27,093 bases of DNA from an uncultured Anaerolineaceae bacterium (GTDB lineage Bacteria; Chloroflexota; Dehalococcoidia; Tepidiformales; Tepidiformaceae): contig CAZKZR010000001.1 of the NCBI GenBank assembly GCA_964557245.1, positions 1 through 27,093 on the forward strand, given 5' to 3'. The notes beneath the pieces are model-generated. The model was not told the origin of the DNA, did no database searches, and worked only from the letters and a program-made list of their open reading frames with translations. Positions 9,257-27,093 of this stretch are shown in pieces. Within the stretch, counting starts at the first letter, position 1. Every line of letters starts with the position of its first letter. Position numbers and translations under genes: made by a program.

Positions 9257-11599
9257 CTACGGCACGATGACGCGGCCGCGGACCATGTCCCGGAGTGTCT
9301 CGCTCAACTGGTCATAGGCCACGATCAGCCGCTCATCGATGTCCGTGCCGCTTGTGTAGACGGCGAAGCCGATCTGCCCCGCCGGTTCGTATTCCATGAC
9401 GCCCGAGCGCCCGTAGTGGCCCCAGCGCTCGCCGTAGATACGCCCTTCTTCCCGCCAGCACGGGCAGAACGGATAGGTGCCCAACCCGGCGTACTGGAAC
9501 TCGGGACCGAGGAAGTCGGTCATCGCATCGCGCGTCGCTTCCGAGAGCAAACGGTCCGTTCCGTAGAGGGCGAGCGCCCAGGCCGCGATGTCGCCAACAG
9601 TGGAATAGATACCTGCTGACGACCAGAGCAGGCCGTGGTACTCGAACGCCGCGGTCGCCGGGCCAGTACTCGATGACGAGCGGAGAATGCCCGAACTGGA
9701 ACGCAGCGCGGCGTTGCTCTGGGGATGCGTCGAAGCCGCGGTCGGCGCGATCTCTTCGTCCATTTTGGTCCCGGTAAGTCCGAGCGGGTCCAGCAACCGT
9801 TCGTGGAGCGCGGTGGTATACGGCGTTCCTGTGACCTTCTCGATGACCAGCCCGAGCATGTAGTACCCCGGACTGGAGTAAAGAAACCCTGTACCCGGTT
9901 CGAAAGCCAGGGGAGTCCGCGACGCGGCCAGCAGCGCGTCGGCCGGCGCGATCCCGTCGGTCGCCATCAGCCCCGAACGATGTTGGATAAGCTCCCGGAC
10001 GGTGTAGTCCCCGTCGTGAGCGATCCATGGCACGTAGTTCGAAACTCGCGCGTCCAGGTCCACCTTGCCTTCTTCCACCAGCTGGAGAACGAGGGCGACC
10101 GTGAACGTCTTGGTGACGCTGGCCGTCGGGTAGACGTAATTCGACGGCAACGGCTGTCCGGTCTGGACGTTGTTTCCGGACGCTGCCTGCCACGTCGAAC
10201 CGTTCCCCATGGCGATGGCGACGGCGGTGCCATCGAGTCCGTTGCTCAAACGCCAGGCATCGAGCGCCGCCTGCAGTTCCCCGGCGCTGACCGTTGCGGG
10301 TTCGTTGGGCGCGGGCAAAACATCGGGCGAAGGCGGTTCCTCCAGGACCACCGCACTCGCCGCACGGAGCGCGATCCCGACTCCCGACGGCGGGACCGCC
10401 CGGTGCTCGGCTCGCAGGTCTCCCGTGGGCCGCAGTTCGCTCACAAGGAACGCCGCGAGCAGCGTGAAAACGCCCATCGCGGCCACGGCCGGCACCGCGA
10501 ACCGCCTCAGCACCGACTGGTCCGTAGAGATTCGCTGTGGGCCCGCCCGGGGAGTGATGTGAAGTTCCCGCCGCGCCGCGAAATCTTCTACCCATCCGAA
10601 CGCCAGCATGCAGACGAAGGTCACGGCCAGGACGATCGGGAAGGCCGCGACATCCCGCAGCCATGCGGGGTGCGGGTCGGCCCAGAGGAGTTCGTACATC
10701 ACGAAGAGGCCAGCCGCGTGCCACAGGTAGATCGTGAAGATGCGGTCGTTCACCCAGGCGACGAACCGCGCCGGACCGGGCTGCGTGGCGAGCCGGCGCA
10801 GCGGCGCTTCGAACGTCAGCGCGATGCCCAGCCAGGTAAGACCGACCAGCAAGTGGGCGGGATACGAAGCGTTGACCACCATCCCCGGCACGTCCTGGGT
10901 CGCAATCCAGGCGGTAGCCCCGATCGCGAAGACGAGCGTTCCGGCCGCCCGCACTCGCGTCCCGATCCTGCCAACCAGACCGGCGTTGTACGCGAAACCG
11001 AGCAACCAGAAGATCGAGAACGTCGCCGCATCTTCAAACTGCCACGGCACGGGGTGGCCGGCCCGGGCGCGCATTTCGAAGACAATCGCAAAGCCCAGGG
11101 GGATGCCGATCACGGCGACGGACAGGCGCCGGAACAGCCAGAGCAGCAGCGGGCTGAGGAGGATGAGCCAGGTCAGGCAGCGCAGGTACCAGAGCACCGC
11201 CCAGAAGGTGACTCCCCAGCCGGAACCCTGGGGATCCCAGATGGGGAAGATCCACCACGGCAGCTGGTCCCAGCGCATCGGCTGCCCCAGTTCCACCTTC
11301 ACCTGCGAGTGCAGCGCCATGCCCGGGACAACGACCAGGGCAAAGGCCCACAGCGGTATGAGCAGCCTTCGGAAGCGGGCTATCAACACGTGCCGCCAGG
11401 AGGCTCGTTCCAGGGAGTGGGCCATCAGCGAGCCGGCGACGAAGAACATCGCCGGCATGGAGGCGACCAGGTAAGAGAGCCACGCGAAGCCGAACGTGTG
11501 CCAGGCCAGCACCCGGATGATTGCGACCGCGCGAATCAGGTCCAGGAACTGGTTGTGCGGCTTGTTCTGTGCCGGACCTTCGGCCGTAGCGTGTTGCAT
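9257..11599 (-). CDS. Acyltransferase-3 (OafA-like, polytopic) fused to a beta-lactamase/class C-type serine hydrolase
   Basis: N-terminal FLDLIRAVAI..H, MPAMFFVAG, RFRRLLIP, LWYL and FTIYLWH with about 10 hydrophobic segments. C-terminal SxxK (ASVTK), LIQHRSG, FEPGTGFLYSS and GHYG. Confidence 0.88.
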   Translation of the reverse strand: MQHATAEGPAQNKPHNQFLDLIRAVAIIRVLAWHTFGFAWLSYLVASMPAMFFVAGSLMAHSLERASWRHVLIARFRRLLIPLWAFALVVVPGMALHSQVKVELGQPMRWDQLPWWIFPIWDPQGSGWGVTFWAVLWYLRCLTWLILLSPLLLWLFRRLSVAVIGIPLGFAIVFEMRARAGHPVPWQFEDAATFSIFWLLGFAYNAGLVGRIGTRVRAAGTLVFAIGATAWIATQDVPGMVVNASYPAHLLVGLTWLGIALTFEAPLRRLATQPGPARFVAWVNDRIFTIYLWHAAGLFVMYELLWADPHPAWLRDVAAFPIVLAVTFVCMLAFGWVEDFAARRELHITPRAGPQRISTDQSVLRRFAVPAVAAMGVFTLLAAFLVSELRPTGDLRAEHRAVPPSGVGIALRAASAVVLEEPPSPDVLPAPNEPATVSAGELQAALDAWRLSNGLDGTAVAIAMGNGSTWQAASGNNVQTGQPLPSNYVYPTASVTKTFTVALVLQLVEEGKVDLDARVSNYVPWIAHDGDYTVRELIQHRSGLMATDGIAPADALLAASRTPLAFEPGTGFLYSSPGYYMLGLVIEKVTGTPYTTALHERLLDPLGLTGTKMDEEIAPTAASTHPQSNAALRSSSGILRSSSSTGPATAAFEYHGLLWSSAGIYSTVGDIAAWALALYGTDRLLSEATRDAMTDFLGPEFQYAGLGTYPFCPCWREEGRIYGERWGHYGRSGVMEYEPAGQIGFAVYTSGTDIDERLIVAYDQLSETLRDMVRGRVIVP

Positions 11600-15128: not shown

Positions 15129-15617
15129 TCAGTCGCGGGCGTAGCCGCCATCGCGAAGGCGCCGCCAGACTTCGCCGCTCGCGGCGTAGCGCTCCATCAG
15201 GTACGGGTACACGGCGGGGACGTTGAACAGCTCTTCCATGCACAGCTGGGAGAGATAGCGGTCCAGCAGCGTCGGGTGCTCATCGGGGTCCACCATGTCC
15301 AGCATGAGCCCCTCCTCGAAGCCTCCTGCGGCGGCAGGCATCCCGGGGACCACGTTCGACGTGACCAGGCCCTTCGCTTCGAGTGATTCGATCGCCGCGC
15401 GCAGCCTCGCCCGGAACTCCGGGATGACGCGCATGTTGTCCGGCCCGAGGTAGGCCTCGCGGTCTTCGGTCTCCTGCAACGCAGCAGCCACCGCGCACAC
15501 GTGGTCCACGCGGAAGGCATCGCTTCCCGCCGACTTCGACGGCGGCAAGCCCACCGAAAGCACGCCCAGGACGGTTTTCTCCAGCAGATCGAGGTCTTGC
15601 GGTTGGTAGGCACTCAC
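15129..15617 (-). CDS. Hypothetical protein (about 162 aa), possible winged-helix-like fold
   Basis: Biased codon usage starts near GTG 15617, which is preceded by TG-C-TACCCT at 7 nt. Segments LLEKTVLGVL and LRAAIESLEAKGLV recall wHTH helices. Confidence 0.65.
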   Translation of the reverse strand: MSAYQPQDLDLLEKTVLGVLSVGLPPSKSAGSDAFRVDHVCAVAAALQETEDREAYLGPDNMRVIPEFRARLRAAIESLEAKGLVTSNVVPGMPAAAGGFEEGLMLDMVDPDEHPTLLDRYLSQLCMEELFNVPAVYPYLMERYAASGEVWRRLRDGGYARD

Positions 15618-15710
15618 AACGGACAGGGTAGCAAAGCGGTTGAAATCGCAAAGGAATGAGGACGGTTGCACCCCGAACCTGCGGGAGGCTTCTCGCGTTA
15701 GAATCCCACA

Positions 15711-15745
15711 CTCAGTCCTCAGTCCTTTCAACTTTCAACTCAGGA
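15711..15745 (+). repeat. Short tandem heptamer run in the epoxide hydrolase leader
   Basis: CTCAGTC CTCAGTC CTTTCAA CTTTCAA CTCAGGA. Confidence 0.6.
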
Positions 15746-15754
15746 GGCCGGGCA

Positions 15755-16705
15755 ATGGCCGAAATTCGCCATCACCAGGTCCAGACCAACGGAATCAACA
15801 TGCACGTCGCCGAAGCCGGCGTGGGCTTCCCCGTGGTCTTCATCCACGGCTTTCCCGAACTCTGGTACTCCTGGCGCCACCAGATCCAGTCGCTCGCCGA
15901 CAACGGCTTCAGGGCGATTGCGCCGGACCAGCGCGGCTACGGCGAAACCGACGCGCCGAAAGACCCGCACCAGTACACGATGAAGATCCTCACCGCGGAT
16001 ATGGCCGGGCTACTCGACGCCCTGGACATCGAGAAGGCGGTCTTCGTGGGCCACGATTGGGGCGGCGCCGTGCTCTGGCAGATGGGGCTCCGGTATCCGG
16101 AACGGGTGGAGCGGCTCGTTGGCCTGAACACGCCGTTCGGGGGCGCCGGCGGTGGGCGTGTGACCGAAAACCTGCGTGATTTCCACGGGCTATCGGACCA
16201 GACGTTCTACATGCGCTACTTCCTGAACCCAGGCGTCGCCGAAGCCGAACTCGAAGCGGATGTGCGCACCACCTTCAAGAAGATCTTCCTGCCCTACACC
16301 CGCGCCGAGGATTTCACGACGTTCATGAAGGTCGGTGGCGATGGCAGCGGTGTGATCGCGAAGATCGAGCACACGGACACGTTCCTCACGGACGAGGAAC
16401 TGGACGTCTACACCAGCACGTTCGAGCGGACCGGCTTCACCGGCGGCCTGAACTGGTACCGCGGCGCGGACTTCAACGCCGACGAAGTCGGCGGCCCGAC
16501 GGCCAACACGCTGGCCATCAAATCCATGATGGTGACGGCCGGGAAGGACACGATTCTCAAGCCCGCGATGGCGGCGGCCATGCCGATGATGATTCCTGGC
16601 ATCCGCATGGAGCACATCGAGGACTGTTCCCACTGGACCCAGCAGGAGCGCCCGGCCGAAGTGAACGCGCTGCTGCTGGACTTCCTTGCCGATCTGAAGC
16701 GCTAG
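15755..16705 (+). CDS. Epoxide hydrolase (alpha/beta fold, soluble EH-like)
   Basis: Motifs HGFPELWYSWRHQ, APDQRGYG, Asp nucleophile GHDWGG, FYMRYF and LNWYR lid tyrosines, CSHWTQQE; AGGAGG SD. Confidence 0.92.
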   Translation: MAEIRHHQVQTNGINMHVAEAGVGFPVVFIHGFPELWYSWRHQIQSLADNGFRAIAPDQRGYGETDAPKDPHQYTMKILTADMAGLLDALDIEKAVFVGHDWGGAVLWQMGLRYPERVERLVGLNTPFGGAGGGRVTENLRDFHGLSDQTFYMRYFLNPGVAEAELEADVRTTFKKIFLPYTRAEDFTTFMKVGGDGSGVIAKIEHTDTFLTDEELDVYTSTFERTGFTGGLNWYRGADFNADEVGGPTANTLAIKSMMVTAGKDTILKPAMAAAMPMMIPGIRMEHIEDCSHWTQQERPAEVNALLLDFLADLKR

Positions 16706-16714
16706 ATTGCCGGC

Positions 16715-16801
16715 CTAGAGGACGCGTCGCCGGAAGAAGACTCGGCGGCGGCGTGCCATGATCGGGCGGCGGCGGGACGGGCGGAATACGCGGAAGAACA
16801 T
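16715..16801 (-). CDS. Candidate small Arg-rich protein, 28 aa: MFFRVFRPSRRRPIMARRRRVFFRRRVL
   Basis: GGAGAG lies 5 nt before the ATG. The ORF sits in an otherwise empty gap between convergent genes, downstream of a terminator, and ends 9 nt from the opposing stop. Confidence 0.5.
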   Translation of the reverse strand: MFFRVFRPSRRRPIMARRRRVFFRRRVL

Positions 16802-16869
16802 CTGATCTCTCCATAACTGTTCTGTCCTCTGTATGGCGTCGCCAACAGAAAAAGTGCGACGCAGGGACG

Positions 16870-16914
16870 AAAAAACGGTGCAGACGGTGGTCGGAGATTC
16901 CACCGCCTGCACCG
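16870..16914 (-). terminator. Intrinsic terminator of the 942-aa gene
   Basis: Minus strand: CGGTGCAGGCGGTGG-loop-CCACCGTCTGCACCG (15 bp; the single mismatch is a G:U pair on this strand) followed by TTTTTT. Confidence 0.85.
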
Positions 16915-16945
16915 GGGAGGGAGGGGTCGCCTGCCGGGGAGGGCT

Positions 16946-19774
16946 TCAGGCGGCCTTCTGCAATTGCCTCGGCGCGAGCTCGATCACCTGCGCCGGGGCC
17001 TTGTGGGATTCGCGGTACCGCTGCGCGAACCCGCCGACGAAGAACGCGAGTGCCATCAGTTCGGCGCCCTCTTCGATGACGGTGATCGTCCACGCGTGCG
17101 ACGCGAATCCGTCGATTGCGACCGTCAGTACCGCGAACGGCGCCGCGCCGAGGAAGTACAGGATGGCCTTCGGGTGTTCGAACACCTGCTTCCAGAGCAG
17201 CGCCGAGATAGCCATGCCGGTCAGCCCGTAGACCGCGACGATGAAGTCGCTCGGGCGGTGGAACCCGAACGGGTGGTCGAACGGAGTCGTCGCCGAAATC
17301 AGGCCGCCGAGCTTGCCGTGAATATCCGGCGTGGCATCGAACGCGAGAATCGCGAACGCCAGGCCCCAGGCGCCCCAGAGGTCGCGGTAGATGGCCCGTC
17401 CGCCGTCCTTCCGCCAGGCGGAGATGCCCATCGTGCCCGCCACCAGCATCATTGCCGACGACAGGAAGGTGACGGGCCCGAAGTCCCGGAACAGGTCCGG
17501 TTCGGCGCTGCGGGGGTCGATGGCCGCGGAACCGGCCAGCGCGGTGGCGGCGAACACTCCCGTGAATACGACGAGCGCAGGGGTGAGGTACCGCGTGCGG
17601 GCCAGGCGGCCGGCAAACGCCTCGAGGGCCCTCGCGGCCGGGACAATCCCTTTGCTCGCGGTCTCCGAGCGGCCAGCGGCTTCGCGAACCCGCAGCACGG
17701 AGGCGCCGGCCAGGAACACCCCCGCCGCGAGCGCAGCCGCGGATGCTCCACTGACGGCGGCCGCTTCCAGCCCGAAGGCGGCGCCGGCGGCGATCGTCGC
17801 GACGGCAAGGACGGGCGATGACGCTCGCGAAGCCAGGAATTCGTGGCGGAACATCCAGGCGGTTGCGGCCGCGGTCAGCGCGTAGGCGGCGGCCGCCAGC
17901 ATCGTCGTTTCACTCTCGCCGGGGACCATCGGGATGTTGGTGTCCTCGAACAGGCCCGCGATGTTCGCGCTGATGTTGAACGCAAGGTCGATGCCCGCGC
18001 CGAGAGCGCCAACGCCGGCGATCAGCCAGAGGAAGCTCCCGCCCTGGTCGGCCGCCGAGGCGGATTGCCCGGTCTTCCAGAAGGCGCGGAAGGCGAGCAG
18101 CGCCGCGAGACCCGAGACCGCCAGCGCGGCGTACGCCACCCGGTCCATTGCGGTGCCCGAAAGCGACCCGCCGGCGAGCACCGCCGTCCCGGCGATGGCT
18201 CCAACTGCCGCCACCGAGACCAGCCCGGCCGCGTTCGGCTGGCGCAGCTTTGCTGAAGCGGCCGGGAGCGCCATCCAGCGGCTCAGCGCACCGAGGTGCA
18301 GCCGCTCATGCAGGCGGAACGGGATGTGGCGAAGGGCCTGGTCGAACAGGACCGCGCGCAGTGCCCGCTGCGATCGGAACGGCCGCGCCGCGAGGTAGGC
18401 AAAAGCGCCGAATCCCGGGATGGCGCCGAGGACGAACACCGGCGCAGAGTGCACCGCGCGAGCTTCGCGCCTGGCGTCCGCGTTGCGCAGTCCGGACCAT
18501 TCGCCCTTCAGCCGGGCGGCCAGCGTCCAGCCGCTGCGGGCGATGGAACCCAGCGGGAAGCGCAGGGGCACACTCATGGCCAGGTGGGCGCCGAGGCCAG
18601 CGGTCGCAGCGGTCATCTCGGGAGCGGCCAGCGAAGCGCGCGCTGCTTCGGCCTCGGCCGGTTGCAGCAGGCCTTCGTTGACCCAGTTGTCGATGCCGGC
18701 GGTCGCGATGTCCGTCGCCATCCGCTCGCCGCCCGAAGACAGCCGCTTCACTCCGCGGAACCAGCCCGGCACGTCGATGATTGCCGTGGCGATGCGCAGC
18801 GCTTTGCTCACGTAGCGCCGCTCGCTGGCGTGCCATGCGCGCTGAGCAATGCCGTAGTTGGCGGCGGAGATGCGCAGGCTGTTCGCGCTGGCGTCGCCGA
18901 GTTGTGCCTCAATCTGGGGCAGGTGTCGCTCGAGGTAGGCGTTCAGCCGGCCCACGTTGATCTCATCGAACGAGGGATAGAGCCCGGCCCGCAACGAGCG
19001 CCAGAGCACTCGCGGCCGCAGGAACGGGGACACCAGGTTCGATTCGAGGTCGATGATCCGGTACGCGCCGTCCGTGCGTTCGATGAGGTTGCCGATGGCG
19101 CGCGGGTTGTACGAAGCCACCTGCCACGGCGGCAGCCCGGCCTCTTCGAAGTGGCCCTGGAGCCGGTTCAGGAACGTCCGCGCGGTTTTCGTATCCCGCG
19201 GGAGCGTACCGCGAACTAACTCGGTGACCAGGCTGTAGCGCCCGTCGTCGCCGAGCGTGACATCCAGCACCGGTGAGACGTGGTTCTCGCCGAACCAGTA
19301 CTCGGTGAGCAATCCCGCGATCGCCCGCCGCTCAGTGGCCGCCGTGAATGCGGCTTCGTTGGTGGTGTAGGGGAAGGCGGACTGGAACGAGAGCGCGTAG
19401 AGCAGTTTCACGGGCCTGGTCGGCCGGTACACCTTCGTCGCCGTGCCCCTGTCGTAGTCCAGCACCACATCACTCGAAATCGAGCCGGTCAGCACGATCC
19501 CGGTCTCCGGCACTGATGTGGCCGGGGCAACGGCCTCAGCGGTGGCGGCGCCACGCCGGAAAGCGAGCACCAGCCCCGCGCCGCCGAACGCGACCGCAAG
19601 GCTCAGCGCGAACGCGGCCGCCCAGGCCGGCTGCGCGGCTTGTGTTGCCTCGAATAGCGCTGCGGCGGCGAAGAAGATGCCGACGGCGATCAGTGACCCG
19701 GCAGCGGCAAGTCGGCCGCTTCCGTGAGTGTCAGCCGTACCGAAGTCCTGGTGTGCAGGCGTCCAGGTGGACAT
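16946..19774 (-). CDS. 942-aa membrane protein: 2 TM, protein-kinase-like domain, multi-TM C-terminal region
   Basis: GGGGAG SD. Kinase-like elements ATKVYR, HVSPVLDV..SLVTELVRG, GNLI and RIIDLE, followed by many hydrophobic helices. Confidence 0.8.
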   Translation of the reverse strand: MSTWTPAHQDFGTADTHGSGRLAAAGSLIAVGIFFAAAALFEATQAAQPAWAAAFALSLAVAFGGAGLVLAFRRGAATAEAVAPATSVPETGIVLTGSISSDVVLDYDRGTATKVYRPTRPVKLLYALSFQSAFPYTTNEAAFTAATERRAIAGLLTEYWFGENHVSPVLDVTLGDDGRYSLVTELVRGTLPRDTKTARTFLNRLQGHFEEAGLPPWQVASYNPRAIGNLIERTDGAYRIIDLESNLVSPFLRPRVLWRSLRAGLYPSFDEINVGRLNAYLERHLPQIEAQLGDASANSLRISAANYGIAQRAWHASERRYVSKALRIATAIIDVPGWFRGVKRLSSGGERMATDIATAGIDNWVNEGLLQPAEAEAARASLAAPEMTAATAGLGAHLAMSVPLRFPLGSIARSGWTLAARLKGEWSGLRNADARREARAVHSAPVFVLGAIPGFGAFAYLAARPFRSQRALRAVLFDQALRHIPFRLHERLHLGALSRWMALPAASAKLRQPNAAGLVSVAAVGAIAGTAVLAGGSLSGTAMDRVAYAALAVSGLAALLAFRAFWKTGQSASAADQGGSFLWLIAGVGALGAGIDLAFNISANIAGLFEDTNIPMVPGESETTMLAAAAYALTAAATAWMFRHEFLASRASSPVLAVATIAAGAAFGLEAAAVSGASAAALAAGVFLAGASVLRVREAAGRSETASKGIVPAARALEAFAGRLARTRYLTPALVVFTGVFAATALAGSAAIDPRSAEPDLFRDFGPVTFLSSAMMLVAGTMGISAWRKDGGRAIYRDLWGAWGLAFAILAFDATPDIHGKLGGLISATTPFDHPFGFHRPSDFIVAVYGLTGMAISALLWKQVFEHPKAILYFLGAAPFAVLTVAIDGFASHAWTITVIEEGAELMALAFFVGGFAQRYRESHKAPAQVIELAPRQLQKAA

Positions 19775-19943: not shown

Positions 19944-20894
19944 TCAGGCCGGGAGCAACGCCCGCAGCCGCTCATCCAGCTCCTTCAGCGGCCGGCCCTT
20001 GCCGAAACGCTCGAGCACGGACCGCCTGCCCGACTGGTTCGTCTTCAGTTCACCTGCCCGGTGCTTTTCCAGCAGACCGGCGATCGCCGCTCGAACCTGT
20101 TCCAGCCCTTCGGCCTTGATGCACCCCGGCATGGCGAACGTCCAGATGACGTATCTGCCCCGCGAAAGCGCCTCAACCGCGATGAACGACTGGCCGTCGT
20201 GGCTCGTAAGCCGCACCACCACCGTGGTCTCGCGGTACAGCGCGTCCATGTCCTCTACCCAATCCCGGGCCTCCAGGTTGGACGGCAGCGGCTGGGGCAA
20301 CGTCCCGGCCGGGGACGGAATGAGCGTGAACGGCACCTCAGGAAACTCGCGTGGCAGCTGCAACAGCGTTTCGCCGTCGAATACCTCGCGGTCGTACGAA
20401 TCGACGGGGTAGTAGAGCAACACGCGGAATTCTTCGGGCAAAGGCGGCGCCGGAGGCACATGGATAGGAATCGGGAGCGAGACGTACTCGGAGATGACGC
20501 CAATTGTCCGCAGCTCTTCCACTAACCAGGGCGCGTCGCACCAGTGCGCCGGCCGTTCGGCCACGCGCAGTGACACGTTGTGCCGGCGGTGCTCGTCGAT
20601 GGCGATCTGCACGTCGGTGCCAACCCAGTGGATGACCGTGGGCTTCCTTCGCAACCGCAACAGGCGGTCCTGCGGTGACTTGCGGTCAATCCGGCTGCCG
20701 ATCAGGTAGACGATGTCGGCGCGCGCGGCGGCCGCCGCCACTTTCGCCCAGCCGCCGGCGCTCCTTCCAGGGTGGGGAAGGTATTCCGCCTTCCAGCCCA
20801 GGTCTCCCAGGTCCCTGGCCAGCAGCTTCCCGAAATAGGGCAGCCCCAGGATCAGGATGCGGCCACGGCGCTCCCCGTCGCCCCCAGGGTTCAT
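19944..20894 (-). CDS. Putative glycosyltransferase (GT-B, GT4-like, divergent)
   Basis: Motifs RILILG, HWVGTD, SHDGQSFIAVEALSRGRYVI (GT4 S..E.....EA..G.PVI-like); start overlaps the acyltransferase stop. Confidence 0.7.
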   Translation of the reverse strand: MNPGGDGERRGRILILGLPYFGKLLARDLGDLGWKAEYLPHPGRSAGGWAKVAAAAARADIVYLIGSRIDRKSPQDRLLRLRRKPTVIHWVGTDVQIAIDEHRRHNVSLRVAERPAHWCDAPWLVEELRTIGVISEYVSLPIPIHVPPAPPLPEEFRVLLYYPVDSYDREVFDGETLLQLPREFPEVPFTLIPSPAGTLPQPLPSNLEARDWVEDMDALYRETTVVVRLTSHDGQSFIAVEALSRGRYVIWTFAMPGCIKAEGLEQVRAAIAGLLEKHRAGELKTNQSGRRSVLERFGKGRPLKELDERLRALLPA

Positions 20895-23421: not shown

Positions 23422-24363
23422 CTAACGCCAGAGCACCGCGACCAGTTTCTCCAGTGCCTCTCCCGCCCGCGGCCCCGGCGCGCGGAGGAAGAGCGAGGTA
23501 TCGAGCACGGCGACGCGGTCCTGTTTGACGGCGGGCACTCCTGCCCAGGCTCGGTCGGCTTTGATCTGCGCATCAAGCCCGCCCTGCCCCGAAGGGAGGA
23601 TGAGCACGGCCTCCGGAGCGAGCGCGGCGGCGGCGCCGACATCAATGACCCCAAAACCCGGTATTGGCCCGCCATCCGCGACGGAACCAAGCACGTTGGT
23701 TGCTCCGAGGTATTCCAGCAGGCTCCCGATATAGGTCGCCGAGCCGCCCCCGAAGACGTCCCGTCCGCCTCCGGTCAACACCAGCACCCTGGGCGCGCCG
23801 CCGCGGGCCGCGGCCACACCGCGGGCGGCCTCCGTGCGCGCTTCGAGTTGATCTCGCGCGGCCGCTGCCTCCGGCCCATGGTCCGTCGCCTCTCCCATCG
23901 CCGTCAGGGCCGCCAGAACCTCGGAGAACGAGTTCGCCTTCAGCATGTAGACCGGGCGGCTGAAGCGGTCGAAATCCCGTGTCCGGCCGGCCTGGTAGGC
24001 CGCGTCAGCCAGCACAAGGTCCGGCGCGAGCGCCTCGATGGCGTTGAAGTCGGGAGAAATGGCAGAACCGACAAGCTTCGCCGCGGGCGCCACATCCGCC
24101 GGCGTGTCGGAGGTGCGGCCCAGTACCTCCAGACCGATGGCCACGGCGTAATCGGCCGCGGCCGGGCTCAAGGCCACAACGGTCCGCACTTCCTCGGGCA
24201 GCGAAACGCTCCGCCCCGTCATGTCTGTGACTTGCCGGCCCCCGTTGGTGCCGCTTGCGGTGACCGTGGCCGTCGGCGAAGGCCTTGGCGGAACGGCCGG
24301 CGCCGCTTTCCCGCAACCGGCGAAGACGCCGGCGAGCAGCGCCACCGCCAGCCACCGTTTCAC
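23422..24363 (-). CDS. ABC transporter substrate-binding lipoprotein (BtuF / iron-siderophore, helical-backbone type)
   Basis: Lipobox FAGC; motifs VTDMTGRSV, TVVALSP, PDFNAIEALAPDLVL, GATNV and RAPGPR. GTGA overlap with the cofC stop. Confidence 0.9.
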   Translation of the reverse strand: MKRWLAVALLAGVFAGCGKAAPAVPPRPSPTATVTASGTNGGRQVTDMTGRSVSLPEEVRTVVALSPAAADYAVAIGLEVLGRTSDTPADVAPAAKLVGSAISPDFNAIEALAPDLVLADAAYQAGRTRDFDRFSRPVYMLKANSFSEVLAALTAMGEATDHGPEAAAARDQLEARTEAARGVAAARGGAPRVLVLTGGGRDVFGGGSATYIGSLLEYLGATNVLGSVADGGPIPGFGVIDVGAAAALAPEAVLILPSGQGGLDAQIKADRAWAGVPAVKQDRVAVLDTSLFLRAPGPRAGEALEKLVAVLWR

Positions 24364-25013
24364 GCGCGTGCTGCGAGGCGCGCTTCAACGCCAATCGACT
24401 GCAGGTACCGGCCGGCTGCGCCCTGCCGCCCCCGGGGCGCCCTCAGCAACTCGACGATGTCATCGGCGGTATCAAGGTCCAGGCGCAGTTCACGGTTCGG
24501 ACAGACCGCGACGTGCATGCCGGCCTTGCGCGCCGCCGCTGTGTGGCGGGCGAATGACGCTGCCCCGTACGCGAGCGGGAAGCGTCCAGGCGGCTCGAGA
24601 ACCATCGCGTTCGTACCGCCGTCCCGGCTTTCCACCACGGCGATGGCGTTCGGACGCGACATCGAGAGCAGGTAGTCCACGGCTTCATTCGTCGCGAGCG
24701 GGAGGTCCGCATGGAGGATGAGCACCCGCTCCCGCCCGCTGCCTTCCGTCATGAGCGTCGCCAGAGCCGCTTCCAGTTGCCCGTTCAGGCCCTCGACGTC
24801 GGCGGATTCGGGCATCACGCGCGCCTTGCCCGCGGCGGCCGCTCGCACCCGCGGGTCGGCGGTCAGGACCACGGCCGCCGGACCAGCCGCGTGCAGCACC
24901 GATTCGAGCGTGATGATCGCCAGTGTTTCCCGCTCCTCCGGCGAAAGCAGGGGCGCCAGCCGGCCCTTCGCGCGGTCCAGCCGGTTCACCGGAATGAGCA
25001 CGGGAACGCTCAC
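24360..25013 (-). CDS. cofC: 2-phospho-L-lactate/phosphoenolpyruvate guanylyltransferase (F420 biosynthesis; FbiD)
   Basis: Motifs VLIPVN..AKGRL, HADLPL, DGGTNA, YGAASFARH and LDLDTADD; directly after cofD. Confidence 0.92.
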   Translation of the reverse strand: MSVPVLIPVNRLDRAKGRLAPLLSPEERETLAIITLESVLHAAGPAAVVLTADPRVRAAAAGKARVMPESADVEGLNGQLEAALATLMTEGSGRERVLILHADLPLATNEAVDYLLSMSRPNAIAVVESRDGGTNAMVLEPPGRFPLAYGAASFARHTAAARKAGMHVAVCPNRELRLDLDTADDIVELLRAPRGRQGAAGRYLQSIGVEARLAARA

Positions 25014-25942
25014 CTGGCGGTCTCCAGGAAGGCGAGGATGTCGCGAGCCAGTTCCGCTTTCCGTTCCATGCTGGTCATCATCGTGTCCGTCACGAGGCAG
25101 CGAAGTCCCAGCGCTTCTACTTCATTCGCCAGCGCCCGGTCCTGCTCGTCGATGACGAACACATCGATCAGGCCGCTGTAGATCTTCGCCACCCCCAGAG
25201 CGGAAACCTCGTAACCCATCGTGGTCATCATTTTCGCCGCGGGGCCTTTCACCACCTGCCCGGCGATGATCGGGCTCACGGCGACCCGGGTGGCCTTCGT
25301 TGTTGCAAGTGCCGAGCGCACGCCTTCAACGGCGAGGATCGGTCCGACGCTCACGAACGGGTTGCTCGGCGCGAGGAAGACCGTCTCAGCGTCGCGCAGC
25401 GCTTCGATGACACCTGGCGCCGGTTTCGCCGCCTCGATGCCGGCGAACCGGATCGATCGCACATCAACCTCCGTGCGCAGCCGGACCATGTACTCCTGGA
25501 AGGCGAGTTCTCCCTCGGGCCCGGTGATCATCGTCCGCACCGGCTCATTGGTCATGGGAATCACGGTGCAGCGGAGGTCCCAGGCCTTCGCCAGCCCGGC
25601 AACGATTTCGTGCATCGGCACACCCTGGTGGATGAGGCGAGTCCGGTGGATCGCCATCGCCAGGTCCTTGTCGCCCAGGTTGAACCAGCGTTCGTAGCCG
25701 AAGCGCTGGAGCTGATCCACCACGGCGAACGTATCGCTGGTGAGGCCCCATCCCGTCTCCGGGTTGATCGCGCCGGCCAGTGCGTAGAGCACGATGTCGG
25801 TGTCCGGCGAGACGTGCAGGCCGAACATCTCCACATCGTCGCCGGTGTTCGAGATCACGGTGACTTCGGAGGGATCAACTACCTGGCAGAGGCCCTGGAG
25901 GAAGCGAGAAGCGCCGACGCCGCCGGCGAGCACGGTGTACAC
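25010..25942 (-). CDS. cofD: 2-phospho-L-lactate transferase (F420 biosynthesis; FbiA)
   Basis: Motifs LAGGVGASRFLQG, NTGDD, SPDTD, WFNLGDKDLA, PSNPFVSVGPIL and SPII..KGPA. Confidence 0.95.
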   Translation of the reverse strand: MYTVLAGGVGASRFLQGLCQVVDPSEVTVISNTGDDVEMFGLHVSPDTDIVLYALAGAINPETGWGLTSDTFAVVDQLQRFGYERWFNLGDKDLAMAIHRTRLIHQGVPMHEIVAGLAKAWDLRCTVIPMTNEPVRTMITGPEGELAFQEYMVRLRTEVDVRSIRFAGIEAAKPAPGVIEALRDAETVFLAPSNPFVSVGPILAVEGVRSALATTKATRVAVSPIIAGQVVKGPAAKMMTTMGYEVSALGVAKIYSGLIDVFVIDEQDRALANEVEALGLRCLVTDTMMTSMERKAELARDILAFLETAR

Positions 25943-25978: not shown

Positions 25979-27093
25979 CTAGGTCGATTCCGGGCGTCTG
26001 ACGGTCCGCGCGCCTACTGGCACGCGGGGATCGGGCGCTCGCGCCGCGGTTGCCGCCGGCTCTTCCCGGCTTCGCCGGACCGGCTCACCGAGCGGTTCCA
26101 CCACCGGGTTGTGCCCGCGCGTGCCCGCTCCCAGTTCGATGGCGACGAGGATCGCGAACACCAGGTAGAGGAATGGTTCCTCCAGCAACCGGCCCTCGGA
26201 CTGAGACTGGAAGAGGATCTCGATGAGCGCGGCCGCGCACCACGCCGCCATTAATCGCGAATACCGGTCGTCATACAGCCGGTATGCCGAGCGGCAGGCG
26301 ACGATGACGCGCAGCGCGAACAGCGTGAGCATGCCGATGCCGACGATTCCCAGTTCAGCCAGGATGCTGATGAACGAGGTGTGCGAGAGCGTGGTCTTCG
26401 CCCACCAGGGGAGCGTCCAGAGGTAGCTGATGACCAGCGTGTGCTGGTAATTGCCCGAACCAACGCCGACGAGCGGGTTGTCCTTCCACATCTCCCAGCC
26501 GCCCTTGATCAAGAACTCTCGCTGGCCGATGAGCTGGATGCCCGAGGTGAGCGACTTCACCCGCTCGGCATTCGCGCCGCCCTGCATGAAGAGAAGCACC
26601 AGCAAGAACGCCAGCCCGCCGAATGCCACCGCGGTGAGGCGCAGCTTGGTGTACCTCCGGATCGGCGCCATGAGTACCACCAGGAACGAGGCGAGCAACA
26701 TGCCCAGCCAGCCCGACCGCGACGCCGTTGTGACGATGCCGACGGCGCAGATCGCCATCATCGGGGCCGCGATGTAGACCGTGAGCCGCCGGGGTCCGGT
26801 GACCATGATCAGCCCCGCGGAGAGCGCCATTGAAATCGCCAGGAACCGCGCAAGGTTGTTCGGGTCCGCGAAGAACGCGTTGGAGCGGTAGCTGTAGTCA
26901 TCCGATTGGATCAAGATCGCGCGCCACTGGAACACGCCGAGTACACGCTGGGCGATGGCGACGACGGAAAGCAGGGTTGCCGCGATGAGGAACGCGGCGA
27001 CTATTCGCTCCAGGTCCTTCCGGTCCTCGATCATCGAGGGTGCGGCGAACACGAAGGCCACGTACATCGGCATGATCAGCACGCCGTTGGTCG
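25979..27093 (-). CDS. O-antigen ligase / Wzy_C family membrane protein, 5'-truncated
   Basis: The frame is open to the window edge. Motifs F.DPNNLA, TASRSGWLG, MWKDNPLVGVGSGNY and SHTSFISILAELGIVG. Confidence 0.9.
   Translation of the reverse strand, partial: TNGVLIMPMYVAFVFAAPSMIEDRKDLERIVAAFLIAATLLSVVAIAQRVLGVFQWRAILIQSDDYSYRSNAFFADPNNLARFLAISMALSAGLIMVTGPRRLTVYIAAPMMAICAVGIVTTASRSGWLGMLLASFLVVLMAPIRRYTKLRLTAVAFGGLAFLLVLLFMQGGANAERVKSLTSGIQLIGQREFLIKGGWEMWKDNPLVGVGSGNYQHTLVISYLWTLPWWAKTTLSHTSFISILAELGIVGIGMLTLFALRVIVACRSAYRLYDDRYSRLMAAWCAAALIEILFQSQSEGRLLEEPFLYLVFAILVAIELGAGTRGHNPVVEPLGEPVRRSREEPAATAARAPDPRVPVGARTVRRPEST

Follow-up and report, generated by a model that had tools for sequence, protein, structure and literature searches.

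Very small, highly basic proteins associate with the bacterial ribosome, among them bTHX of Thermus, bS22/Sra, the actinobacterial bS22 and bL37, bL34 and bL36. They have 24–46 amino acids, of which 40–55% are basic and almost none acidic, and their genes are routinely missed by annotation; gene callers of the Prodigal type apply a 90-nucleotide (nt) length cut-off and miss genes of fewer than 30 codons. bTHX, bS22 and bL37 are restricted to particular lineages, and Sra is non-essential and regulated by growth phase. Arginine-rich-motif RNA-binding modules, such as those of lambda and P22 N and of HIV Tat and Rev, are N-terminal parts of larger proteins with defined RNA hairpin targets nearby, and tritrpticin, indolicidin and apidaecin are animal peptides cut from secreted precursors. 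Here we describe a 28-codon open reading frame (ORF) at positions 16715–16801, minus strand, of a 27,093-nt stretch of DNA from an uncultured Anaerolineaceae bacterium (Tepidiformaceae, Chloroflexota; contig CAZKZR010000001.1), the whole of which we call the window. Comparison of related loci makes it probable that this ORF is a real, selected and translated stand-alone small-protein gene. Its family appears to be previously undescribed and, as far as can be seen, restricted to the Tepidiformales (Chloroflexota, class Dehalococcoidia).

The predicted peptide is like the small ribosome-associated proteins in size, basicity, near-absence of acidic residues and lineage restriction. It differs from them in showing no sequence or profile similarity, in having far more aromatic residues (5–8, or 18–28% of the peptide) and in using Arg without Lys, one divergent member (L008) apart; moreover, its gene lies outside any ribosomal operon and is absent from some close relatives. 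With the arginine-rich-motif peptides it shares a short, unstructured, Arg-dominated segment of 10–20 residues that could fold on RNA and forms a module of peptide size; in this case, however, the motif makes up the entire protein, and a search for a conserved RNA hairpin beside it found none. With tritrpticin, indolicidin and apidaecin it shares a composition of Arg, aromatic residues and Pro without a helix. The locus is of a known kind, an unannotated gene for a very small basic protein; what is new is the family, its motif and its upstream element, which are not in Pfam, NCBIfam, PDB or Rfam and are all but missing from gene catalogues.

On the minus strand the ORF reads ATG TTC TTC CGC ... 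CTC TAG (16801..16715) and encodes MFFRVFRPSRRRPIMARRRRVFFRRRVL, in which Arg occurs 12 times, Phe 5 times and Asp, Glu and Lys not at all. A Shine–Dalgarno (SD) sequence, GGAGAG (16807–16812), is followed by a 5-nt spacer, ATCAG, and then by the ATG. An initial annotation made from the letters alone had drawn attention to this composition, to the position of the ORF and to GGAGAG at 5 nt, all of which are present in the sequence as stated. It had also described the gene as hidden in the tail of a 65-amino-acid ORF, and such a frame does exist (16912..16715), its GTG start lying inside the terminator hairpin of the upstream gene; an exact look-up of this masking ORF among recorded proteins returned no record. 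The internally repetitive pattern that it saw amounts to CGGAAGAA occurring twice, with nothing beyond those two copies. Composition and length alone do not take the small ORF beyond chance expectation, and it stands above chance because of the comparative evidence, namely relatives, selection and an upstream motif. The GC content of its three codon positions (0.66/0.55/0.86) follows the pattern of the window's real genes.

An alpha/beta-hydrolase gene faces the small ORF tail to tail. Its orthologues, 69–93% identical, occur in metagenome-assembled genomes labelled Dehalococcoidia, Tepidiformales or Tepidiforma (Chloroflexota), and the DNA runs that contain the window are bioreactor, activated-sludge and biofilter metagenomes. 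At the same spot and on the same strand, relatives (loci designated by L numbers) carry ORFs of 26–29 codons: L001, identical to L035 (MFRIFPFPRFRNRRIVRRRRFFRRAL), L002 (MFRIFPFPRFRNRRVARRRQRRFFRRAL), L007 (FRFLWPFRRWRRRRRFRRRPFAGPRL), L009 (MLRWLFPFRRFRRPLFRRRLRRRPRL), L036 and L037 ((M)FRFLFPFRRWRRRRGFF[G/R]RPRFRAGPRL) and the more divergent L008 (MDMIYRWFPALRRFRMYVTKFRNRTS). The start codon is ATG in the window, L001, L002, L009 and L008 and GTG in L007, L036 and L037, and GGAG or GAGG precedes it by 5–10 nt in the window, L001, L002, L007, L009, L036 and L037; the ATG of L008 has no SD-like sequence. A degenerate DNA pattern that combined the SD, the start and the core motif was scanned over 34 loci, where it matched only L001, L002, L007 and L009, and then over metagenome contigs, where it matched 3 loci, 2 of them new Tepidiforma-type forms (L036 and L037). 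The core pattern without the SD had no match on viral contigs. Independently, a JGI gene caller had called the 26-amino-acid L001 form (P0001).

The changes that separate these ORFs are mostly synonymous. Between L001 and L002, 23 of 25 amino acids are identical and there are 8.5 synonymous against 2.5 replacement differences (proportion of synonymous differences, pS, 0.42; of replacement differences, pN, 0.046), with changes that include CGG/AGG (Arg) and TAA/TGA (stop). Mismatches between L007 and L009 fall 2/3/19 on codon positions 1/2/3 (pS about 0.77, saturated; pN 0.18), and L036 and L037 differ by three synonymous changes and one replacement. Insertions and deletions within the ORF come in multiples of three: L001 and L002 differ by 6 nt, L007 and L036 by 3 + 3 nt, and a further strain by 76 to 70 nt. 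Sister strains of the window carry four single-base insertions or deletions, all of them outside the ORF (16856, 16863, 16870 and 16923), and their two substitutions inside it, S9F and M15V, are both towards the family consensus. The other four reading frames are not conserved. In composition-preserving shuffles, similarity exceeded that expected from composition for L007 and L009 (p = 0.0004), for the window variant and L002 (p = 0.004) and for L002 and L009 (p = 0.02). Comparison shows a frame with a conserved start, SD and stop whose amino acid sequence is under purifying selection. The suggestion that a real small protein is concealed as the tail of a spurious longer ORF is well supported, since frame, start, SD and stop are kept in relatives with mostly synonymous change; the initial annotation had proposed that a lack of conserved frame and SD would speak against it, and both are conserved.

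Upstream of the small ORF, all seven matching loci (L001, L002, L007, L009, L035, L036 and L037), which stand for five of the six distinct relatives, share a bipartite motif, CGTCAC-N16-GCCAT, that begins 56–64 nt before the start codon, with GCCAT 34–42 nt before it. The motif occurs nowhere else in the 37 loci (about 400 kb), and its 16-nt spacer has wholly diverged between lineages and is unalignable. The window has a one-base-deleted form, CGTC-GCAC ... GCCAT (16833–16861, minus strand), which begins about 60 nt ahead of the start codon; its GCCAT stands at about 35 nt. Here the minus strand of 16854–16862 (CGTCGCAC) is one base short, and contigs of the sister strains X2, X3 and X5 have an extra base after 16856 that restores CGTCAC-N16-GCCAT. 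L008 carries a sigma-70-like promoter site, TTGCCA-N16-TATGGT, in place of the family motif. That the motif belongs to the small gene follows from its place behind three different genes and, in the window, behind a strong terminator. From its bipartite geometry we infer that it acts as the promoter of that gene; the initial annotation had reasoned that the gene would need a promoter of its own, and the comparison of relatives places a gene-specific motif where one was expected.

Extracytoplasmic function (ECF) sigma factors of the ECF41 type recognize promoters with the signature TGTCACA-n16-CGTC (PMC3426412). The small-gene motif is similar in having GTCAC in the -35 position and a 16-nt spacer, but its downstream half is invariant GCCAT and not CGTC. 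An ECF41-dependent promoter was accordingly rejected as an assignment, because CGTCAC[CT] and the 16-nt spacing fit and the -10 position GCCAT does not; the resemblance serves as a lead and no more. Among the window ORFs from 9257 to the end, no ECF sigma gene was detected. The inverted repeat GCGTCGC/GCGACGC that had been noticed just upstream of the ORF is present (16862–16856 and 16842–16836), but it is not conserved in relatives and is broken by the 1-nt insertion in the sister strains, and we discarded it as an operator on both grounds. The insertion that restores the canonical motif also destroys the repeat, which is therefore incidental.

The expectation of a strong terminator at 16870–16914 was confirmed by folding against shuffles. 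This intrinsic terminator of the upstream 942-amino-acid gene (minus strand) has a 15-bp stem with one G·U pair, a 9-nt loop and a T6 run; the hairpin (16914..16876) and T6 (16875..16870) have a folding energy of -30.6 kcal/mol (z = -6.1), and 0 of 200 shuffles were as stable. The terminator is also conserved in L002. Its position between the 942-amino-acid gene and the small ORF shuts the latter off from transcription that arrives from upstream. A scan of the window for sigma-70 and terminator consensus sequences detected none, having overlooked this real terminator owing to its 9-nt loop. Between the stops of the small ORF and the hydrolase gene, neither the consensus scan nor folding found a terminator. 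The mRNA region of the small ORF showed no excess structure over shuffles (z = +1.5) and, not being unusually structured, is unlikely to be a structured non-coding RNA. Rfam gave no match to the whole window at the gathering score, and a permissive scan of 16600–17000 gave only chance-level microRNA and long non-coding RNA matches (E 0.5–8). A hairpin in the 5' untranslated region that encloses the SD (GAACA/UGUUC in the window, CUGAC/GUCAG in L002) was rejected: single-sequence folds conflict, and RNAalifold gave no consensus pair.

The gene order is hydrolase gene, convergent small ORF and then, upstream of the small ORF and on its strand, a variable gene, orf316 and a hexapeptide-repeat transferase gene. 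The variable position holds the 942-amino-acid gene in the window and L002, a 107-amino-acid ArsR-family regulator gene in L007, L009, L036 and L037, and nothing in L001. In L008 the small ORF is solitary and divergent from a GNAT gene, with no co-directional gene upstream. The 3' end of the hydrolase gene is the one neighbour relation kept in every member. In the window the two stops are 9 nt apart, and the tail-to-tail gap in relatives ranges from -4 to +35 nt, except in L001, where it is 371 nt with a repeat insertion. In that locus (L001:6964-7321, and likewise in L035), 3.7 tandem copies of a 99-nt unit with 89% matches lie between the stops of the hydrolase gene and the small ORF, widening the gap from a few nt to 371 nt with both flanking genes untouched.

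Searches of protein collections found the family nowhere else. A peptide-profile search of a collection of 5.8 billion proteins returned only P0001, the 26-amino-acid call identical to the L001 form. The sole match of an exhaustive HMMER search of 1.84 billion representatives, run with all 65 columns, was P0002, which was dismissed as a spurious repeat ORF. No Pfam or NCBIfam match was obtained for six family members at E <= 10. A family hidden Markov model (HMM) run over six-frame translations of all loci disclosed no further copy; its extra matches in L017 fall within a larger, duplicated ORF but not in the frame of that ORF, and we take them for chance. That locus contains a direct duplication of about 620 bp (L017:2208-2954) that produces two identical copies of the start of the larger ORF.

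We also looked for expression. RNA data on the small ORF and its homologues are uninformative. Three mud metagenomes labelled 'RNA-Seq' give sparse, DNA-like coverage, with none over 16708–17259. For the homologue in L036, one low-depth metatranscriptome contig of 151 nt spans the 3' end of the ArsR gene and the start of the small ORF, and read-through co-transcription from the ArsR-family gene into the L036 small ORF is possible; X24 on L036 behaves like genomic DNA.

The peptides have 26–29 residues and a net charge of +11 to +12, and they contain neither Lys nor acidic residues; the exception is L008, with a charge of +6, one Asp and a C-terminal Ser. Arg makes up 43%, and there are 2–3 Pro. 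The best-kept part is an N-terminal core, M-F-R-x-[FL]-[FW]-P-F-R-R-[FW]-R, followed by an Arg/aromatic tail of variable length that ends in Leu in six of seven distinct members. The endings are PRL in L007, L009, L036 and L037 and RVL or RAL in the window, L001 and L002. All seven copies that end in Leu encode it by CTC, despite the saturation of other synonymous sites. Mean Eisenberg hydrophobicity is -0.5 to -0.7 and there is no hydrophobic segment. An amphipathic helix, as in a simple membrane model, was rejected, the hydrophobic moment exceeding that of shuffles in no member. Kinship with bL34, considered because of the window's 'RVFRPSRRR' beside 'RTFQPS..KR', was likewise set aside: other members have F in place of S9, so that the PS is no shared feature of the family, and no profile matched.

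On the model that we favour, the small gene would be transcribed on its own from CGTCAC-N16-GCCAT, possibly read by an alternative sigma factor, and, with no room for a terminator between the two stops, its mRNA would continue in antisense orientation into the 3' end of the convergent hydrolase gene. The released peptide may be an extended, non-helical polycation of the arginine-rich-motif type that binds a polyanion, most likely RNA or the ribosome, in the manner of bTHX, bS22/Sra, bL37 and bL34, which alone among well-known bacterial proteins have such a size and charge. We hold this function, polyanion binding with RNA or the ribosome as target, tentatively, and as something short of an even expectation; what points to it is the composition of the peptide, with Arg, aromatic residues, Pro and no amphipathic-helix signal. 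Weighing against the ribosome or RNA as target, single peptides and the profile matched no PDB chain at E <= 10, ribosome structures included, and the absence of the gene from the examined sites in some close relatives argues, unless it has moved elsewhere, against an essential or core ribosomal role. Since some relatives seem to lack the gene, it would be an accessory rather than an essential factor. The initial annotation had offered protamine-like or ribosome-associated, membrane-active and polyphosphate- or polyhydroxyalkanoate (PHA)-binding roles; no sequence or structure match backs any of these, and nothing in the analysis points to PHA or polyphosphate.

A more specific version of this model would make the peptide a new lineage-specific ribosome ligand of Chloroflexota, either an accessory ribosomal or hibernation-type protein or an endogenous, tunnel-binding, apidaecin-like peptide that, with its conserved C-terminal Leu and the PRL ending in Tepidiforma, would remain on the terminating ribosome and modulate termination. 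A dedicated alternative sigma factor, acting at CGTCAC-N16-GCCAT as promoter, would turn on its gene. We regard this version as speculative and improbable. Residues R17 and L18 of apidaecin trap release factors, and active apidaecin-like peptides have a net charge of +2 to +4 (PMC11347161). The small peptides of the Tepidiforma branch likewise end in P-R-L, but their family differs from apidaecin in its charge of +11 to +12 and in having no export signal. Termination arrest of the apidaecin type was rejected as an assignment because the window branch ends in RVL or RAL, without the critical penultimate Arg, and because the charge is too high.

Several observations weigh against the favoured model. 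All six frames are nearly open at the locus, and short Arg-rich ORFs are frequent in related loci, which have about 65% GC; this would suit a chance frame in a GC-rich spacer. On the plus strand, the frame that shares third codon positions with the small ORF ('anti f1') has nearly the same pS/pN as the small ORF itself, which would suit a conserved element of the plus strand, either an ORF or the 3' untranslated region of the hydrolase gene. The choice of the minus strand rests on its start, SD and stop and on slightly better amino acid identity. Direct comparison of the window peptide with the Tepidiforma forms is not significant (p = 0.16–0.41 in shuffles), and the proposed homology between them is transitive, running through L001 and L002 and backed by the upstream motif and by synteny. 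No other copy departs as far from the canonical form as that of the window, whose motif lacks 1 nt and whose peptide has S9 and M15 in place of the consensus F and V; it could be a weakened allele or an assembly error. In L003 and L004, whose hydrolases are 91% and 87% identical to that of the window, orf316 abuts the hydrolase gene and the small ORF is cleanly absent, and it is also absent near the orthologous hydrolase gene in L005, L006 and L010. Finally, no RNA run covers the window locus. That there is no gene here, or only an element of the plus strand, nevertheless seems to us the least probable of the readings weighed. A stop codon stands at the 5' end of the plus-strand frame in the window, L001, L036, L037 and L008, and no start codon is conserved in that frame. 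All that it contains in the window is a 15-codon ORF, the ATG of which the sister strains lack; in every pair compared, amino acid identity was lower in the plus than in the minus frame. The minus-strand start, SD and stop are kept across lineages in which neutral sites are saturated, and the ORF tolerates insertions and deletions only in multiples of three, with single-base ones just outside. No RNA family match or excess structure suggests an RNA element. The presence of the ORF in both the window clade and the distant Tepidiforma clade is most simply explained by ancestral presence and later losses, and the gaps in its distribution suggest that the small gene is dispensable, or has been relocated, in genomes that lack it at the syntenic spot.

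If the gene is real, its product might instead be toxic or membrane-active, a cationic peptide that harms membranes or obstructs a target inside the cell and is held in check by the overlapping hydrolase transcript, in the manner of a 3'-overlapping type I toxin–antitoxin pair, or else a leaderless antimicrobial. The core [FW]-P-F-R-R-[FW]-R bears a resemblance to Arg/Trp/Pro-rich antimicrobial peptides such as tritrpticin and indolicidin, the -4 to +35 nt between the stops in most members means that the transcripts must overlap, and a dispensable, patchily distributed gene with its own, possibly stress-type, promoter motif would suit such a role. We consider it unlikely. A type I toxin, a small hydrophobic transmembrane peptide, was rejected for a product of such negative hydrophobicity with 11–12 Arg, and with no hydrophobic segment and no amphipathic moment above that of shuffles the peptide does not fit as a membrane toxin of the type I style or as a pore-forming helix. 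No transporter, immunity, export or antisense RNA gene adjoins the ORF in any locus, and in L001 the 371-nt repeat array parts it from the hydrolase gene, the ORF itself being unchanged. Alternatively, translation of the ORF could act in cis: ribosomes that stall on its Arg codons or on the nascent chain, or that terminate slowly after the conserved final Leu, would decide whether the antisense transcript extends into the hydrolase gene and would thereby tune hydrolase expression. The link with the 3' end of the hydrolase gene in every member, the lack of a terminator between the stops, the 11–12 Arg codons among 26–29 and the invariant CTC as last codon of the Leu-ending copies would all accord with this. 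With no co-directional gene downstream, however, classical attenuation is excluded, and a leader or attenuator peptide was rejected accordingly: the next gene is convergent in every member, and excess or conserved structure is lacking. Known arrest peptides depend on C-terminal residues at the peptidyl-transferase centre, whereas here the N terminus is best conserved and the C-terminal half carries insertions and deletions; L001 has its 371-nt insertion between the genes, and short spacers can keep adjacency for trivial reasons. Such cis regulation strikes us as very improbable, and polyanion binding by a stand-alone small protein is the reading that we tentatively prefer.

The convergent hydrolase gene (15755–16705, plus strand) encodes an alpha/beta-hydrolase similar to epoxide hydrolases and haloalkane dehalogenases (Pfam Abhydrolase_1, 1.3e-34; NCBIfam). 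Its orthologue in L010 (L010:6001-6946) is split into two overlapping segments in different frames (query residues 1–184 and 175–314) and is a frameshifted pseudogene or an assembly error; the label of that bin, Gammaproteobacteria, looks doubtful given 76% identity to a Chloroflexota gene. Divergent from the hydrolase gene lies orf200 (15129–15731, minus strand), a conserved syntenic neighbour without a family match. The 942-amino-acid ORF (16946–19774, minus strand) has no Pfam or NCBIfam match, gene-like codon statistics and, by eye, long hydrophobic stretches, so that its product is putatively multi-transmembrane; found only in the window and L002, it is an insertion specific to their lineage, placed between the small ORF and the conserved orf316. 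orf316 (19944–20894, minus strand) matches no family; its identity over eight related loci is 64–89%, and the stop of the hexapeptide-repeat transferase gene overlaps its start. In the Tepidiforma branch (for example, L009:2664-2987, minus strand), the ArsR-family helix-turn-helix protein has a Cys-rich C terminus, CCPPEAGEGCCS, and its gene ends 76 nt before the small ORF. Elsewhere the window encodes F420 biosynthesis proteins CofC and CofD, a periplasmic binding protein and a Wzy_C/O-antigen-ligase-like membrane protein (23422–25942 and 25979–27082, both minus strand), and an acyltransferase-3/beta-lactamase fusion protein (9257–11599); these are ordinary genes unrelated to the small ORF.

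Taken together, a few metagenome-assembled relatives suffice, when compared, to recover such a gene with its start, its ribosome-binding site and a private promoter-like motif. The best experimental entry is a Tepidiforma isolate or a strain of the L001 or L002 type, since the window copy is the least canonical. The extreme composition makes the gene a candidate for recent birth from GC-rich spacer DNA, with subsequent fixation by selection. A toxic or regulatory product would count as an unusual small effector, one that is not hydrophobic and is encoded tail to tail with a hydrolase gene; if the peptide does bind the ribosome or RNA, it would be a lineage-specific component added to the translation apparatus of a poorly studied phylum.

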